Source: an uncultured Gemmatimonadales bacterium | Lineage (GTDB): Bacteria > Gemmatimonadota > Gemmatimonadetes > Gemmatimonadales > GWC2-71-9 | Direction of reading: 5' to 3' | Assembly (NCBI GenBank): GCA_963730185.1 | Contig: CAVSQW010000012.1 | Coordinates: 288,001-352,000 of the forward strand | DNA length: 64,000 nt | Part shown: positions 9,001 through 54,000 of the stretch, piece by piece | How the letters are laid out: every line of letters begins with the position of its first letter | How positions within the stretch are numbered: position 1 is the first letter of the stretch | Position numbers: made by a program

Positions 9001-12000
9001 GCCGAGGGCAGCTCGGCCGTCTCGGCCCCGAGATAGAGGTCCCGGGTGATCGGATCGACCGTGCCGTCGAAGGCAGCGCCGCCGCAGCACGAGCTGACCG
9101 GACCGCAGCATCCGGCCTCGCCGGAGGCGTCCATGACCCGGCGCGCGGCCGCGCCGTACTTGTCTTTGACGATGCCAACCACGGATTCGAGGTCGGGGTT
9201 CGGCGTGGTTTCCGGGCGTGGCGTGGCGGACATGGGTTCCCTCTCCGATCAAACAACGTTGATATGTTTTACCGACTTTACCCGACATCCGGGCGAGATC
9301 GGTGTCAGCCGCAGCAGCTGCCGAGCACGCGGAGCTTGCCTCGTCCCGCCGCCTTGTCGGTGGCCAGCACGCGGACGACGTCGTGCGCCTCCGCGAGGCC
9401 ATCGGGCGTGAGCGAGTAGTAGGACCACTTCCCCTCCCGGCGGTCGGTCACCAGGCCGGCCTCACGAAGCACCCTGAGGTGAAACGACAGCCGGGACTGG
9501 GCCGCCCCCAGCGAATCCTGGAGCTCGCAGACGCAGTGCTCGCCACCTCGAAGGCGGTCGAGGAGCGCCAGGCGGGTCTCGTCCGACAGCGCCTGGAAGA
9601 GCCGGGCGGCGCGGGCGAGGTCGAGGGCGGCGGTGGTCATGACAACCATCATATCAAAGAATCTTGATATGTCAAGAGCAAGCCGGAACGGTCGCTTCAG
9701 CCAAGCCCTTCGAGGGGCGATCGCGGGACCTGCGTCGCCCGCCCGAGAGCGGGCCCCTCGTCGGCGTAGGATCCTGGGGCTCCGGCTTCGGCCGGTTTCG
9801 CGCGGGCGCCCGCCGAGTTGCGACGTCGCCCGGGCGCGCCCCATCTTCCCCTCATGGCCCACCCACCCAAGCTGGTCCCGGTCCCCCCGACCACGGGGGG
9901 CGAGGTCACGGTCGACCGCTCGCCCTTCTGGATCGGCTCGGCCTCGAGTGCGGCGCTCCGAGTGTTCCTGCCCTCCGTGGCGGAGCGACACGCCTCGATT
10001 CAAGAGCGGGAGGACGGTTACTACCTCTCGGCCCATCCCGGCGCCACCCCACCCAGGGTGAACGGGAGGCCGATCGCGGGTCCGGTGCGCCTGGAGGACG
10101 CGGCGGTCGTCGAGCTGGGCCCCACCGCCAAGTGGGAGTTCGTGACCGGCGCGCCGAGAATCCAGCCGGAGCCCGAGCCGGAGCCCGAGCCCGTCTACGA
10201 CGGATCGCCCGCACCCCGCGGCTGGGCCCGGAAGCGGCGGACCCGGTCGAGGCAGGTCGGCTTTCCCCTGTGGGCCATCGCGGTCGTGATCCTGATCGTC
10301 GGCGCCGTGGGCTACGGCGGCTACATGCTCTACCAGATGTTCAACTCGGTCCAAGGCGAGACCCGCGGGCCGCCGCCGCTCACCGAAGTCGAGGGCCGGC
10401 TCTACGACAGCCTGATGGTCGAAGCCACCAAGGACATCGAGCGAGGGTCCACGCTCCTCGACCTGGGCCTCCAGGACGCGGCGCTGACCCAGTTCACCAG
10501 CGCGATCGCCCTGTTCGAAACCAGCATTCTGGCCCGGAACGAGTGGGTCCGTCCCAGCATCGAGGCGCTGGTCGAGACGGTCCGGCGGATCTATCAGACC
10601 GACCGGGTCAACGTCCCGAACGCCCTGCCCGAGGCCCGCGGCAAGATCGCCGATCTGAGCCGAACCATGAGTGCGGCGCTGAGCCCCGATCAATTCAAGA
10701 CCGCGGTGGAGGTGGTCCAGCAGGCGTTCGACTCCAAGTTCGGGACGAAGTTCGTGGTGACCGGCGCCGACCATCCGGAGCACCTGTCGCTCTACGGGAA
10801 GGGCGGCGCGCTCGACATCCGGGTCAAAGACCTGACCCCGCCGGAAATCGACTTTCTGATCGAGAACTTCAAGGGAATCGGGATCCGGGTGAAGGACTTC
10901 TCCCGCGACGCCGTCCTCCAGGCGCAGATCCAGGCCGCTAAGGCACGCGGCTGGAGCGACCGGGCAGGAACCGGGCTCCATCTCCACATCGATCGGTTCC
11001 GGGATCGCCGGGACCGATGGACGGTGTGAGGGGAGGGATGGAGGAGGGATGGGGAGGGATGGGGAGGATGGGGAGAGATGGGGAGAGATGGGGAGGGTGG
11101 GGGGGATGGGGGGAGGGGTTGCGCGAGGGGATGTTTGTCTCCATTGTAGTCAGTGACTACAATGGAGACACCATGCCGACCCCGGTCTTTCTCGGCGAAT
11201 TCGAACAGTTCGTCCTCCTCGCCCTGCTCCGACTCGGCGACCGCCCCACCGCCATCGAGATCCGGGCCGAGCTCTCCGCGATCGCCGGCCGCCCGGTCGC
11301 GCGGGGAGCGCTCTACCGTACCCTCGACCGACTCGAAGCGAAGGGCTATGTCCGCTGGCGGATCGAGCCGGGCGACGCCAACCGGGCGGGGCAGCCGAAG
11401 CGGCGGTTCGAGGCGACGCCCCTGGCGGTCGGGACGCTGAAGGCGGCCCGCCGCACGCTCGAGGGACTCTGGGCCAGCGTGGAAGGGGTGCTCGGATGAG
11501 CGCCCGGCCGCCGGTCCTGGCCCGGGCCTTCCTCTGGCTGACCCTGCCGAGCACGGTGGTCGGCGCGAGCATCGCGGGCGACCTGGAAGAGGAGTGGTCC
11601 GCGCGCCCGCGCGGCTGGGCCCGGGACGTCTGGTTCGCGGGTCAGGCGCTCGCGATCGGTCTTCGCTACCTACCCGCCGGCCGGCTCCGGGCCAACTGGG
11701 GCTCGGCCGGGTTGTTCAGGGACCTTCGAGCGGCCGTGAACGGCTGGCGCCGGTCGCCGCTCACCGTGAGCCTGGCGATCGGGGCGCTGGCGCTCGGGGT
11801 CGGCGCCAACACGGCGGTGTTCTCGGTGCTCCGCGGCGTGGTGCTCGCCCCCCTCCCCTACGACCACCCGGGCGACCTCTTCCGACTCTGGGACGGCACG
11901 GTGGTGAGCAAGGCGGTGTTCGACCGGAGCACCCGCGACGCCTCGGCCTTCACCGGACTATCAGCCGTCTACGAGACCCGCCAGACCATGGTGGACAACC

Positions 12001-51000: not shown

Positions 51001-54000
51001 TCGGATCGGCAACAAGCGACGACCGTCGGGACTCGCCAAGGAATCCGGCGCTCGCGGTCCGGAGGCCTTCGCCGCGAGCGGCTTCCTGGAGCACTTCGCC
51101 CGGCTAACCACCAAGCTGCTCAAGTCGGCACTGCTCGCGATCCCGCTGGTCGGCCAGGCCGCGTTCCTGGTCGACGCGTTCTTCAAGACCCTGACCGGCA
51201 AGAGCCCGCTGGAAGAGCTCTTCGCCGCGCTCGCCAAGCTGGCCAGCTCCAGCGTCGAGGGCGCCCTCTTCGCCCGGCTGATGCGCGCCATTCCCGCCTG
51301 GGTCCCGGTGGCCCGACGGGGCTACCGGGCCGAGTTCCGCTACGAGGAAGACGGGACGCCGCGGACGGTCGACAAGGAGGAAGAGCGAGAGGTCGAGGGG
51401 TTCCTCACGGCGAGCTACGCCCTCCACAACGACGTCGTGTTCACCCAGTGGAGCCACTTCCGGCATTGGGCCTTTCATGTCCTGCCGACTCCCGGTTTCG
51501 ACTACCTGATCGGCCGGGGCAACATTCCCGATCCGGCGGAGAACGGCTTCATCGACCGGATCGACACCAACATCAACGCACCCCTCTTCGAGCGGGCGCT
51601 CCGGATCTACGGCCAGCAGCGACCCAGCACCGACGATCCGGACCGCGGGGCCCTCGAGTGCCTGTTCGACGTGGGCGCGATCACCAAGCCACCGGGCGAC
51701 GGCGGCTTTCACGGGGCCCACTTCTCCGGCTTGTGGCCGTATTGGCCGATGGCGGGCGACTACTTCTGGGCCGCCGGGCGGTGGAGCTACGACTGCATGC
51801 GCGCCACCGCGGCCGACAAGACCGAGATCTACCCCAGCCAGATCAGCCCGATCAAGGCGTTCGCGGCCGCCCGGTACGAGGGAGTCAAGTTTCCGGAGAA
51901 CGAGAGCACCGTCGAAGCGGTCCGCTTCTTTTTCTTCGCCAGCTCCGAGGGAGGCTTTCGCGACTTTCACGTCGTGCCGGGTCGGAAGGGCCCGCCGGGA
52001 CAGCCCCACATCACCCTGCGCGATCGCGACTATGAGTTCGTGGTCGACCTCCCACCGCACGCCGAAGGGCGGAGCGCCTACCCGGTGGGATCCACCATCG
52101 ACTTCGCCTTCAACACGCTGGTGATCCGGCCGCGCCTGCTGGTCCAGGTGCGGGCCGCACCGTTCGCGGTGGGCGACAAGGTGCCCCAATTCGCCGAGGG
52201 ACTCAAAGCGGTCGCGATCGAGCCCAAGATCGAGCTGCTCCGCCCCTCGAAGCCGACCGAGCGGCCCCAGCAGGTGAAGATCACCATCCCGCTGAGTCAG
52301 CTGCCGGCCGCCGACCCGCAAGCTCGGGAGATGGTCGGGCTGGACATCGCGCTCGGCTGGCACGACCCGACCGGCGAGGAGCTGAAGGATCTGGTCCTGA
52401 TCGACGCCGACATCCGGTTCCCGAGATTCTACAGCCAGTCCGGGCCGGTCCGGCTCATGACCGCGATCAACGGGCGGTGGAACATCCTGACCGAGGACGT
52501 GGAGGAAGAGCCGGACGAGCCCCCGGCCGACTTCCCGCCTCCGGGCTCCCGATCGATCCACCGGGTTCGCCTCTTCCTGCCCAAGGAGGCTCCCGTCTCG
52601 ATCGTCGCCGGGGGAATTTGGTTCCACGGCTTCGGCGAGTTCATGGAGGGCGACACGCTCGCGGGTCGGCGGCTCTTCGTGGGAGGACTGCTCCTCAACG
52701 TCGACGACGACACCAAGCGGCGGCTGCAGGGGGTCATCGACGACGTTCGCAAGACCGTCAACGACCTCCGGAAGGCGGGGCAGACCGTCAAGGATCCCAA
52801 GGCGAGGATCAAGGCGGAGATCCAGAAGCAAATCGACGAGGAGCGGAAGAAGGGCACCGACCCCCGGGCCCTGGCCGAGCTGCAGAAGCAGATGGACGCC
52901 CTGGTGGACGGGCTCCCCGACACGCCGGACGGGATCCAGGCGGCCCTGGCCGCCCTGGACCGCCGGCTGACCGGCATCCTCGACGTGCTCGACGGGATCG
53001 AGGAGTTCCTGAAGGTCACCGACGACCTCATCGGCGAGCGATACTTCCCGGTCTGGCACGAGGACATCGACAACGAGCAGAAGACCGGCGTCGAAGAGAG
53101 CAAGCGGGTGTCGGCCATCGCCCGAACGATGTTCATCCACCCCACCCCGGTGGTCAATCGCCACGACGAGCCCATGGGCTGGGTCGAATTCATCGACCGG
53201 GGGCGGGGCACGCTCGGGCGGGAGCCGAGTGGGGCGTTGATCGTGCCGAATCCGCTGGGGCGGGGGACCGCCGGGGAGCTGCTCAAGCTGGCCGACGCCA
53301 ACGGCGGCAAGCCCATCCGGATGCGGCTGGTGGCGCAACCCTTTACCGGGGTAGGCAGCGGCAACAACCTGGCTCGACGGATCAACCCGCCCCAGGAGCG
53401 GTCCGACTACGAGTTCCAGGTGAACCTCGAGGTCCACCGGTTCCCGTTCCCAGCGCCCAAGAGCGGCGATCCCGAGGTCGGCTGAGCCCGTCGCCAGGAC
53501 GCCGGCGGCCGTTTGGTCTTCCTCGACCCCGCTCCACCCGGCATATTCAGCGGCATCCCGGCCCACGGCCGCCCCATGACCGAACCCCAGTCGCCCGCGC
53601 CCCTCGGCCCGGCCGACCGCACCACCTTCTTCGAGGAACAGGCTCGCCGTCGACGCCGGACCCACCATTTCGCGGTGGCGTCCGCGCTCGCCGTGGCCCT
53701 CGCCGGCATTCCGGTGAGTCTGGTGGTTTCCCCCCTGCTCTACCTGGTCACCCTCACGGTGGCCCACCTGATCCAGCTCGCGACCCCGCTCCCGGCGGCC
53801 TTCTGGCACCTGGTGGATCAGGCCGGCCGCTTCCTGCCGACCGTGGCCCACCAGATCGACCGGGCCATTCAGGCCGGCAACTGGCGGTTGCTGGACCTCC
53901 GCGCACTCGGCCTGCTGGGAATGGCCCTCGTCCTTCCCGGCATCGCCCTCTCGGTCGTGGCCTGGCTCTGGGTCCGGGCGCTGCTCCATCGGGTCGGCGT

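Follow-up and report, generated by a model that had tools for sequence, protein, structure and literature searches.

A rare Gemmatimonadota gene cluster for type VI secretion whose sheath groups beside T6SS-iii, with a conserved membrane protein set of its own

In the T6SS-iii of Bacteroidota, TssN is described as a hub that has EccD-like TM and ubiquitin-like parts and binds TssK, while TssR is described as bearing a vWA domain; the same paper reports no T6SS-iii among more than 20,000 genomes from outside Bacteroidota (PMC10781749). For T6SS-i, a review presents the PpkA-Fha1 threonine-phosphorylation pathway as regulatory (PMC13584744).

We analysed a window of 64,000 nucleotides from an uncultured Gemmatimonadales bacterium. 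Because the GC content of this DNA is 65-74%, genes were called by third-position GC; coordinates are those of the window, and genes lie on its reverse strand unless the forward strand is given. The survey's finding that the window holds a T6SS cluster was confirmed, since TssB, TssC, Hcp, VgrG, TssF, TssG, TssK, a ClpB-like ATPase and PAAR were all found, and every Pfam and NCBIfam score quoted with it was reproduced. It is a rare T6SS gene cluster of Gemmatimonadota, and the sheath is present in 7 of 301 sampled genomes of this phylum. The contractile core forms one operon, tssB-tssC-g76-hcp-tssE-vgrG-tssF-tssG-tssK-clpV. TssB, the sheath small subunit (27661-28131), reached T6SS_VipA with 25.0 bits (cut-off 24) and TIGR03358 with 24.2 (cut-off 97), and TssC, the large subunit (26318-27664), reached PF17541 with 77.8 bits (cut-off 25); against their T6SS-iii counterparts hhalign gave 96.8% and 99.1%, respectively. 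The Hcp-like tube protein (25432-25872) aligned with T6SS-iii TssD at 47.8% (E 1.9e-4), and its identity was 44-85% across the loci matched by the query, with a lower value of 28% in G116. VgrG (23142-24992) was recognised by Phage_base_V (92.4 bits), Phage_GPD (36.3 bits) and TIGR01646 (115.1; cut-off 122), TssF (21399-23138) by TIGR02243 (41 bits; cut-off 156) and hhalign against T6SS-iii TssF (93.4%), TssG (20494-21402) by T6SS_TssG (40.6 bits; cut-off 24.6) and TIGR03347 (36.1; cut-off 143), and TssK (18863-20497) by T6SS_VasE (27.8 bits; cut-off 23.4), TIGR03353 (70.7; cut-off 100) and hhalign against T6SS-iii TssK (96.4%). The final gene of the conserved operon encodes a TssH/ClpV-like ATPase (16095-18848), a ClpB paralogue scoring 914.9 bits with the ClpB model (cut-off 1232) and 696 with the ClpV1 model (cut-off 885); a true ClpB is encoded elsewhere in the genome (1346.7 bits).

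A TssE-like part had been counted among these genes, and a candidate does exist. It is a 119-aa protein (25018-25377; GC3 0.82), whose gene is kept between hcp and vgrG in every locus checked. Its top match among solved structures was the gp25-like protein 9gtp_V (E 0.043), and hhalign aligned it in register with T6SS-iii TssE (E 0.049); with weak matches of E 0.04-0.05, this gene is probably TssE. In contrast, searches with g76 (25913-26299), which the alignment of its homologues shows to be small, conserved and Pro/Ala-rich in its tail, returned no family, no solved-structure relative and no gp25/TssE signal. A 230-aa ORF at 24989-25681 (GC3 0.48) is spurious, the real gene there being the 119-aa one.

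The sheath protein TssC matched only PF17541 in Pfam, which is the model of Bacteroidota T6SS-iii, and its top match among solved structures was citrate synthase at E 0.17. Its relatives amounted to only 154 representative clusters at E<=1e-3 among 1.84 billion. When the full-length matches chosen from the 150 listed were scanned, PF17541 was found in 70/76 and PF05943 in 0/76. In a sheath tree of 57 rows, built by a quick search and with SH-aLRT as its only support, Gemmatimonadota and metagenomic relatives formed one clade of 20 rows (SH-aLRT 99), all six named Bacteroidota sheaths fell into a separate clade of 23 rows (support 100), and the four T6SS-i rows lay outside (support 100). Judged from these sequences, the sheath is a clade of its own beside T6SS-iii and far from T6SS-i, and within the superfamily of PF17541-type sheaths the system is sister to the T6SS-iii of Bacteroidota, the tree leaving the base of the PF17541 group unsettled. 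The proposal of a separate T6SS class is thus upheld in so far as the sheath falls outside both T6SS-i and the Bacteroidota T6SS-iii clade, but this sheath still belongs to the PF17541 (T6SS-iii-type) superfamily.

The known T6SS membrane-complex families were undetectable, as had been claimed. The TssJ/L/M and TssN/O/P/R families had no match in 49 window ORFs scanned with Pfam (20 + 29, some of them alternative ORFs of one stretch) or in 30 scanned with NCBIfam, and in a six-frame search of the whole genome, which is 81.8% complete, TssN, TssR_VWA, IcmF-related and DotU gave nothing over cut-off. No outer-membrane component was identified for the system. The cluster encodes five other membrane proteins. 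On the forward strand, g64 (9854-11029) comprises a cytoplasmic FHA domain (Pfam FHA, 24.5 bits), one TM helix (residues 147-165, counted on the ORF starting at 9818) and a conserved periplasmic domain; its AF2 model (pLDDT 71.6) gave a fold match for the FHA domain only. The protein g68 (14944-16098), whose gene directly follows clpV in other genomes, has a signal peptide, a periplasmic TPR region, a TM helix (residues 237-255) and a cytoplasmic FHA domain with SRFH and NG motifs (FHA 54.7 bits; TagH-type TIGR03354 54.5, cut-off 120). A signal peptide, a periplasmic VWA domain (39.8 bits), a TM helix (residues 369-387) and a short cytoplasmic tail make up g79 (28378-29694), which has no lipobox in this genome and whose homologues keep a paired-Cys motif and an N-terminus that resembles a signal peptide. 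Its gene overlaps by 4 bases with that of g80 (29691-30830), in which a ubiquitin-like domain is followed by six TM helices and an FHA-like domain, as indicated by an AF2 model (pLDDT 85.1, pTM 0.68), by profile matches to ubiquitin-derived chains (E 6.2e-5) and by Foldseek matches of the model to FHA, SUMO and EccD of ESX-3/ESX-5. The fifth, g84 (35415-36731), carries a cytoplasmic Zn ribbon, a TM helix (residues 260-278) and a periplasmic PEGA domain (25.2 bits), and lies beside the Sel1-repeat protein g83 (34810-35385; 153.6 bits).

That these five proteins are conserved with the system was borne out: together with g83 they are syntenic in all seven genomes with long enough flanks (G000, G001, G002, G003, G111, G116 and G152). 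The tssB side is always flanked by g84, g83, g80 and g79, and the clpV side by g68, the kinase gene g67 (6/7 genomes) and g64. Among the 301 genomes, full-length g80 occurs in exactly the seven that carry the sheath, one further genome having a partial, TM-only match, and it was recovered in all five genomes where it is not directly upstream of tssB. The 80-kb neighbourhoods fetched from G111, G116 and G152 (98-100% complete) hold the same gene set and no further conserved membrane gene. A second, metagenomic lineage of lower GC (0.50-0.58) has the order kinase, g80-like, VWA, tssF, tssB, tssC, with 99.3% (E 6.4e-21) for its g80-like protein against the g80 family; tblastn found no g80 or VWA match in three lower-GC loci, L078, L079 and L080, within the 5-10 kb upstream of tssB. 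PadR, FtsX, the PLP decarboxylase, which is present in just one other genome, and the upstream phosphoesterase and methyltransferase proved not to be conserved along with the system.

Two Ser/Thr kinases had been suggested to switch the system. Both are in the cluster with their catalytic motifs intact, and the switching role is one that we infer. The small soluble kinase g67 (14103-14933; Pkinase 127.9 bits) has VALK, HRDVKPSN, DLG and APE motifs; where found it adjoins g68, and the sequence fetched from G001 showed no copy of it. The other, g82 (32402-34519; Pkinase 161.7 bits; VAIK, HRDVKPAN and DFG motifs), consists of Zn ribbons, the kinase domain, a TM helix and a periplasmic domain; it lies near the cluster in G001-G003, L004, L009, L018 and the lower-GC lineage, but no copy was seen in what was fetched from G111, G116 and G152. 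PpkA, for comparison, is a kinase with a TM helix and a periplasmic VWA domain. The canonical FHA motif for pThr binding uses a Ser, along with a His. This Ser is missing from the FHA-like domain of g64 and from that of g80, which has no such His either, so both are more likely to be structural docking domains, as in T3SS YscD/PrgH.

The probable cargo side of the cluster begins with a DUF4123 adaptor-like gene (42167-42660, start approximate), recognised in the C-terminal third of a long ORF (26.2 bits), of which homologues cover query residues 330-492 only. The following genes are on the forward strand. A PAAR protein with a C-terminal extension (42767-43687; PAAR_motif 85.7 bits, cut-off 27) probably starts at the Met at ORF residue 54. 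After it come, by Pfam, a triplet (44138-47534) of a LysM-like/PG_binding_1 protein (215 aa), an OmpA-like protein (408 aa) and a 517-aa protein, all without signal peptide or TM helix, and a second triplet (48397-53485) of a PG_binding_1 protein (236 aa), an OmpA-like protein (586 aa) and an 873-aa protein.

The system looks functional, and we consider it slightly better than an even chance that it is a separate T6SS lineage, sister to T6SS-iii, in which g64, g68, g79, g80 and g84 replace the known anchors. These bitopic and polytopic inner-membrane proteins would stand in for TssJLM/TssNOPQR, with g80 as the hub in the role of the EccD-like TssN, its two cytoplasmic domains docking the TssK baseplate. 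The VWA, TPR, PEGA and g64 periplasmic domains might build or open the periplasmic passage. Phosphorylation of a component by g67 and g82 could be read by the canonical FHA domain of g68 and so license assembly, and the loaded cargo would be PAAR, DUF4123 and the peptidoglycan-binding triplets.

It is rather unlikely that the FHA, kinase and VWA membrane proteins are a mere post-translational switch like PpkA-Fha1, the true anchor being unrecognised or encoded elsewhere. The TagH-type match of g68, the two kinases and the incompleteness of this genome speak for it, and the same domain set is purely regulatory in T6SS-i (PMC13584744). However, a switch would need far fewer than seven conserved proteins, of which five are in the membrane, g80 is a polytopic protein that, like TssN and EccD, has a ubiquitin-like domain, the g64 and g80 domains lack the pThr-binding Ser, and the 80-kb neighbourhoods of the three nearly complete genomes add no conserved membrane gene. 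Somewhat less likely still is an ordinary, extremely divergent T6SS-iii, with g80, g79 and g84 as true orthologues of TssN, TssR and TssP. Gemmatimonadota and Bacteroidota share the FCB group, the sheath is of PF17541 type and the core is homologous to T6SS-iii parts. Since the T6SS-iii complex has an EccD-like/ubiquitin-like TssN and a vWA TssR, the module parallels it in architecture: g80 echoes TssN, g79 echoes TssR, and a TM helix with an Ig-like periplasmic domain also has its match (PMC10781749). Yet hhalign gave only 0.19% for g80-TssN (15 vs 24 sequences), 0.0% for g79-TssR and 1.9% for g84-TssP, the last confined to the TM helix; g80 reverses the domain order of TssN and adds the FHA-like domain; the sheath clades are separate; TssB, TssK and TssG reach T6SS-i-derived Pfam models, which those of Bacteroides do not; and no T6SS-iii turned up in the more than 20,000 genomes from other phyla that the published work covered. 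The idea of a third, unrelated envelope complex therefore holds for the lack of sequence homology to TssN, TssR and TssP, but not for the sheath type or the architecture, and the five proteins may form one complex.

A contractile injection system that is cytoplasmic or released by lysis, with no anchoring in the envelope, is a hardly credible reading, even though no recognisable anchor or outer-membrane component was found: the operon keeps a ClpB-like ATPase dedicated to recycling as well as TssK, the cluster holds PAAR and DUF4123, and the Pfam/NCBIfam cluster scans, in which tape-measure and eCIS-specific families were not queried by name, showed no tail-fibre gene. For the triplets, a periplasmic, cell-wall-anchored machine part is a quite improbable alternative to cargo. 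It would fit their OmpA-like and PG_binding_1 domains, the presence of the 873-aa protein in 6/7 sheath-positive and 0/294 other genomes, and the position of the triplet directly upstream of tssB in L010, L019, L022, L025 and L026 (in L023 the first triplet gene alone is visible, at the locus end). Against it, G111 had no match with the 873-aa query, signal peptides and TM helices are absent from all homologues of the 236-aa protein and the 586-aa protein, and only 4/8 copies of the 873-aa protein have a hydrophobic stretch. The triplet is moreover duplicated, varies in position and orientation among loci, and adjoins PAAR and DUF4123 as cargo typically does; the triplets are probably cargo.

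The GC content of the window (65-74%) fills the mechanical ORF list with spurious frames, so genes were called from third-position GC and the frame profile. Between 9.8 and 53.5 kb the minus strand carries, in order, g67 (a small soluble Ser/Thr kinase), g68 (TPR-TM-FHA), a clpV-like gene, tssK, tssG, tssF, vgrG, a gene for 119 aa, hcp, g76 (a small conserved protein), tssC, tssB, g79 (VWA-TM), g80 (ubiquitin-like domain, TM bundle, FHA-like domain), a PLP decarboxylase gene, g82 (a TM Ser/Thr kinase), g83 (a Sel1 protein) and g84 (Zn ribbon-TM-PEGA). On the plus strand lie g64 (FHA-TM-periplasmic domain), the PadR and FtsX genes, g85-g87, the PAAR gene and two paralogous PG-binding triplets. 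Every family score quoted in the survey's finding was reproduced with Pfam and NCBIfam, and the best match of TssC among solved structures was again citrate synthase (E 0.17), with no solved sheath matched. The contractile sheath is represented by TssB (VipA, 25.0 bits; cut-off 24) and by TssC (PF17541, 77.8 bits; cut-off 25), the latter score being low against the 170-757 bits of Bacteroidota-type relatives. The baseplate is represented by TssG (40.6 bits; cut-off 24.6) and TssK (VasE, 27.8 bits; cut-off 23.4), TssK being the membrane connector among these parts. Hcp, VgrG and PAAR are all present, VgrG with 92.4 bits for Phage_base_V, PAAR with 85.7 bits and Hcp by hhalign alone, against T6SS-iii TssD (47.8%, E 1.9e-4). 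The recycling ATPase ClpV/TssH is found as a ClpB-like paralogue of 915 bits, below the cut-off; its gene closes the operon in every locus reaching that far, and a different contig holds the housekeeping ClpB (1346.7 bits).

Among 28 species-genome loci, the core genes keep the order tssB-tssC-g76-hcp-(119 aa)-vgrG-tssF-tssG-tssK-clpV wherever the contig is long enough; two of these loci carry just the final residues of tssC. Between hcp and vgrG lies a gene (25018-25377, minus strand; GC3 0.82) for 119 aa. The best solved relative of its product is gp25-like (E 0.043), and an alignment of the product to T6SS-iii TssE stays in register (E 0.049), which weakly suggests that it is the likelier TssE. 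A 230-aa ORF at 24989-25681 (minus strand) has a GC3 of 0.48, overlaps hcp and is spurious, its apparent tblastn homologues being due to conservation of the overlapping true gene. The g76 product (25913-26299) gave no gp25 signal and was rejected as TssE; it is conserved, has a Pro/Ala-rich tail and has no detectable relatives.

Placement of the sheath bears directly on the proposal that this is a separate T6SS class. PF17541 is the model matched by the sheaths of Bacteroidota T6SS-iii. Matches to TssC at E<=1e-3 were confined to 154 clusters in a library of 1.84 billion proteins; among 76 full-length relatives chosen from the 150 of these that were listed, 70 matched PF17541 and none matched PF05943, the T6SS-i (proteobacterial) model. 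Unlike T6SS-i, the source genome has no match to PF05943, the VipB-type sheath. A strong PF17541 relative, P0216 (756.8 bits), had tblastn matches in Bacteroidota plasmids only (10 of 10 records), where the sheath gene adjoins annotated tssN, tssO and tssR and a PKD-domain gene. The last of these is taken for tssP from its position, since it adjoins tssO and tssR in the way described in PMC10781749. On comparing the Gemmatimonadota families with these plasmid T6SS-iii families by hhalign, TssC reached 99.1%, TssB 96.8%, TssK 96.4% and TssF 93.4%, and TssG 9.9%; the sheath model and the homology of these first four proteins (93-99%) are thus points of likeness to T6SS-iii.

A sheath tree of 57 rows with SH-aLRT support was rooted on the true T6SS-i TssC of four Gemmatimonadota genomes; GEM_L026, the intermediate sequences P0144, P0154 and P0165 and 20 PF17541 rows had been left out for speed or long branches. 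The window sheath shared a clade with 7 further Gemmatimonadota sheaths and 12 relatives from metagenomes (SH-aLRT 99, stem 1.08). A second clade (SH-aLRT 100, stem 0.77) took in all six named Bacteroidota sheaths and 17 relatives, and the window sheath therefore does not lie inside the Bacteroidota T6SS-iii clade. Three small PF17541 clades at the base had no firm placement. Since its sheath has a clade of its own beside that of Bacteroidota, the system is, on sheath sequences, a separate branch of the T6SS-iii-type superfamily, outside both the Bacteroidota clade and T6SS-i. TssB, TssK and TssG of this system reach T6SS-i-derived Pfam models at low scores and the Bacteroides ones reach none (E 1e-3), which would fit an early split. 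The idea of a separate class is supported in part, by the sheath clade and by a membrane set of its own, but the sheath falls within the PF17541 T6SS-iii-type superfamily.

The survey's finding had also reported that TssJ/L/M and the known T6SS-iii (Bacteroidota) anchor families are absent, and our searches of cluster and genome bear this out. Models of TssJ, TssL, TssM, TssA, TssN, TssO and TssR had no match among the cluster proteins scanned, which was the scope of the TssO search; TssP, a generic PKD-domain protein, has no model of its own. In a six-frame search of the whole genome (81.8% complete), TssN, TssR_VWA (PF17555, PF20782), IcmF-related and DotU families gave nothing over cut-off. 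The sole window match in the DotU search (13 bits, E 0.2) falls on the TM segment of g64, and that search gives such matches in 7 of 14 control genomes. Absence of TssJLM and, in the cluster scans, of TssA separates the system from T6SS-i and likens it to T6SS-iii. With T6SS-i it shares the contractile core, TssK, a ClpV-type ATPase, PAAR and a DUF4123 adaptor.

A conserved membrane set flanks the core. In all seven genomes with longer stretches (the window genome, G001-G003, G111, G116 and G152), g84, g83, g80 and g79 flank the core at its tssB end, and g68 and g64 at its clpV end, which confirms that the five membrane proteins named earlier are conserved next to the core, with gene order kept. 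The soluble kinase g67 is found in 6 of the 7, and the TM kinase g82 in 4, as well as in loci L004, L009 and L018. The tightest form is that of G116, where g84-g83-g80-g79-core-g68-g67-g64 fit within about 20 kb. Directly upstream of tssB, g80 and g79 are found in about half of the 28 loci; in L010, L019, L022, L023, L025 and L026 a PG-binding triplet takes their place. In genomes with a triplet there, g80 was still found in 5 of 5, on the same contig in four. Full-length g80 is present in exactly the 7 sheath-positive genomes among 301, and one further genome has a partial match covering TM segments only. In G002 and G003 the whole set is present a second time as a paralogous copy (g64-g67-g68-g79-g80-Sel1; L046, 10855-16540, and L048, 10726-17069), which adjoins the first g64/g68 pair; the second g80 lacks the ubiquitin-like domain, and a PEGA match was seen in L046 only. 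Duplication of the whole set in these genomes argues that it works as a unit. We infer that this module forms the envelope anchor and that phosphorylation switches it. Other genes in or beside the cluster are less constant: no further locus among those examined has a counterpart of the PadR gene and MacB/FtsX permease (11017-14096, plus strand), of a phosphoesterase or of a methyltransferase, and one of the PLP-dependent decarboxylase (30906-32390, minus strand) is found in G152 only.

The AF2-type fold of g80, from a 14-sequence alignment (pLDDT 85.1, pTM 0.68), is predicted to run from a beta-grasp domain (residues 1-84) through six TM helices (104-281) to a beta-sandwich (286-373). Against solved structures the g80 profile found ubiquitin-derived chains (E 6.2e-5) and, weakly, the FHA domain of Ki-67, and in Foldseek the model matched FHA domains, SUMO, ubiquitin and EccD of ESX-5 and ESX-3. 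The EccD chains were matched at E 1.3e-3 to 3.9e-3 and probability 0.90-0.97, with TM-scores of 0.15-0.19. In the g80 model, as in EccD of the mycobacterial ESX T7SS, a ubiquitin-like domain at the cytoplasmic N-terminus precedes a TM bundle; unlike EccD, g80 has 6 TM helices rather than 11 and an added C-terminal FHA-like domain, and no other T7SS gene lies near it. None of 14 g80 members matched the YukD/EccD Pfam models. The family comprises only 99 clusters at E<=1e-3 among 5.8 billion proteins, one of them labelled Acidobacteriota, and none of the 99 carries a precomputed Pfam domain. The predicted-interaction score of TssK with g80 was 0.00 in two runs without controls, and speaks neither for nor against binding.

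How far this anchor is a third and unrelated one, as had been proposed, depends on the comparison with T6SS-iii. According to PMC10781749, TssN joins five TM helices to a ubiquitin-like domain in the cytoplasm that resembles EccD, binds TssK and is the proposed hub; TssR contains a vWA domain, and TssP consists of a TM helix and PKD domains. Since TssN is EccD-like and TssR bears a vWA domain in that account, g80, polytopic and with its ubiquitin-like domain in the cytoplasm, and g79, a vWA protein, parallel the T6SS-iii complex. The order of g80 is however reversed, from ubiquitin-like domain through 6 TM helices to FHA, where TssN runs from 5 TM helices to the ubiquitin-like domain. Also unlike T6SS-iii, g79 is a bitopic inner-membrane protein and no lipoprotein, the system incorporates one or two kinases and three membrane proteins with FHA domains, and the core keeps a strict single-operon order. 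By hhalign, g80 (15 sequences) against TssN (24 sequences) reached 0.19%, g79 against TssR 0.0% and g84 against TssP 1.9%, over the TM helix only; among comparisons of g80, g79 and g84 with TssN, TssR, TssP and TssO nothing exceeded this last value. A search of TssN against solved structures found no chain, so the PDB offers no structural bridge to it. The word unrelated thus holds at the level of profiles, but the architecture, with its EccD-like hub and vWA protein, parallels T6SS-iii. The system is best described as a sister of T6SS-iii with an anchor alike in architecture and unrelated in sequence. The interpretation proposed earlier is supported in part: the cluster represents a T6SS lineage in its own right, in which a membrane module particular to it is conserved and kinase and FHA parts are included.

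The remaining membrane proteins have recognisable domains. In g79 a signal-peptide-like N-terminus leads into a conserved paired-Cys motif, after which come a VWA domain, a single TM helix and a short tail; g68 has a signal peptide, TPR, a TM helix and a canonical FHA domain, and g84 a Zn ribbon, a TM helix and PEGA. In g84 (35415-36731, minus strand) we also noticed by eye two internal repeats, like kinase N-lobe fragments, that flank the Zn ribbon. In g64 (model pLDDT 71.6) an FHA domain is succeeded by a TM helix and by a periplasmic domain of strong conservation, an order which recalls the inner-ring protein YscD/PrgH of the T3SS. Within its family, 4 of 8 members matched Pfam Yop-YscD_cpl and 3 of 8 Yop-YscD_ppl_3rd (E 0.0012-0.03, all below cut-off), and the FHA domain without its canonical Ser was counted as a further likeness. 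For the periplasmic domain, a PDB profile search gave FHA matches only, all Foldseek and VIA-align rows for the model fell on the FHA domain, the best ESM Atlas score (0.85) was to an unnamed entry, and tblastn against phages gave one match (E 0.8). Its C-terminal part (10670-11029, plus strand) contains the invariant motifs DHAEH..SLYGKGGALD and GTGLHLHIDRF..RRDRW, which recall the SxHxxGxAxD and HxH zinc motifs of LAS/M15 cell-wall peptidases (MepK, TagX). The motif aligns on that of MepK with Tyr for His (hhalign probability 0.35%), and no LAS/M15 Pfam match was found in g64; a peptidase-like domain may be taken as a lead only.

In the canonical FHA motif, Ser and His bind phosphothreonine. 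On inspection by eye this Ser is missing from the FHA-like domains of both g64 and g80, and the His from that of g80; g68 keeps both. Ser/Thr kinases and the canonical FHA domain of g68 are present, a logic like that of the PpkA/PppA/Fha1 pathway of T6SS-i. No PP2C phosphatase was found among the scanned cluster proteins, and a Metallophos gene nearby is not conserved with the system.

A possible part for the PG-binding triplets (PG_binding_1, OmpA-like and 517-aa or 873-aa proteins; 44138..47534 and 48397..53485, plus strand) in the anchor was also weighed. Homologues of the 236-aa and 586-aa members have no export signal, the position of the triplets varies between loci, and they follow PAAR and DUF4123, which speaks against anchor parts. 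We read them as conserved cargo that would act on the target's cell wall. The 873-aa member occurs in sheath-positive genomes only (6 of 7), and matched only unnamed clusters in the ESM Atlas (0.82-0.84). The PAAR protein (42767-43687, plus strand) has a C-terminal extension ending in tandem repeats RPSVGPV.V.V, in which no toxin domain was detected. The plus-strand genes g85-g87 (36876-41629) encode a 233-aa protein that is secreted, an 887-aa lipoprotein of Big_1/invasin-like type and an outer-membrane barrel of the MetA family; they recur beside the cluster in L009, L018, L045, L047, L088 and L123, and could be an outer-membrane or adhesion partner.

The anchors of T6SS-i and T6SS-iii are unrelated, and for the origin of the envelope anchor of the contractile core Bongiovanni et al. 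2024 (PMC10781749) set out three scenarios and choose none. The present branch, sister to T6SS-iii, has a third set of genes but also a hub that is EccD-like and a VWA protein beside it, and so provides a point of comparison. If g80 and TssN share fold and TssK-binding role, the hub would predate the split and the rest would have been swapped; if they share neither, anchors would have been recruited at least three times. The fullest reading, of a third T6SS envelope anchor with g80 as hub, VWA, TPR-FHA, FHA-TM and PEGA partners, phosphothreonine reading in its structural subunits and a hub ancestry shared by T6SS and T7SS, is one that we put forward tentatively and hold to be rather doubtful. 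Were it true, then together with the EccD-like TssN it would mean that a T6SS ancestor in the FCB group recruited an EccD-type membrane module and that T6SS and T7SS share membrane-hub ancestry. With FHA domains on three membrane subunits, whether Thr phosphorylation is tied to assembly can be put to a direct test.

TXSScan-based surveys place T6SS-iii in Bacteroidota only, as stated in PMC4793230 and PMC10781749. No description of the Gemmatimonadota system was found in the literature searched, the TXSScan supplementary tables lying outside that search. Among candidates scored, 746 close sheath relatives were found at E<=1e-3; the 120 listed are 77-94% identical, and the named ones are nearly all labelled Gemmatimonadota. 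The sheath is present in 7 of 301 sampled Gemmatimonadota genomes, from 4 of 127 genera and from 3 families, so the system is rare and patchy within the phylum. T6SS-i was found in 29 of the 301, none of them sheath-positive. Loci L029 and L019, labelled Acidimicrobiales and Bacillota, carry a Gemmatimonadota-type cluster (TssC identity 83-91%), and both bins are probably mislabelled.

When metagenomes were scanned with aligned intermediate sheaths, 54 loci were obtained, which revealed a second lineage of lower GC. Among 20 loci of at least 9 kb, 15 have a GC of 0.50-0.58 and a sheath about 53-55% identical to the window TssC; a VWA gene was found in 8 of these, a g80-like gene upstream of tssF-tssB-tssC in 5 and a TM kinase in 3. 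The g80-like protein of L077 (423 aa) has 6 hydrophobic helices and an FHA match (E 6.6e-4), and matches the g80 family at 99.3% (E 6.4e-21). Since tblastn found no g80 or VWA gene in the 5-10 kb upstream in L078-L080, the module may be absent from some of this lineage, and so possibly not universal in it, or be encoded elsewhere. Several far relatives of the window sheath gene (26318-27664) are domain fusions of the PF17541-type sheath, with TIR_2 in P0253 (1330 aa), LRR in P0249 (1055 aa), HD in P0239 (613 aa) and EAD11 and SHOCT in P0236 (674 aa); in others, such as P0121 (567 aa), TssB is fused to TssC.
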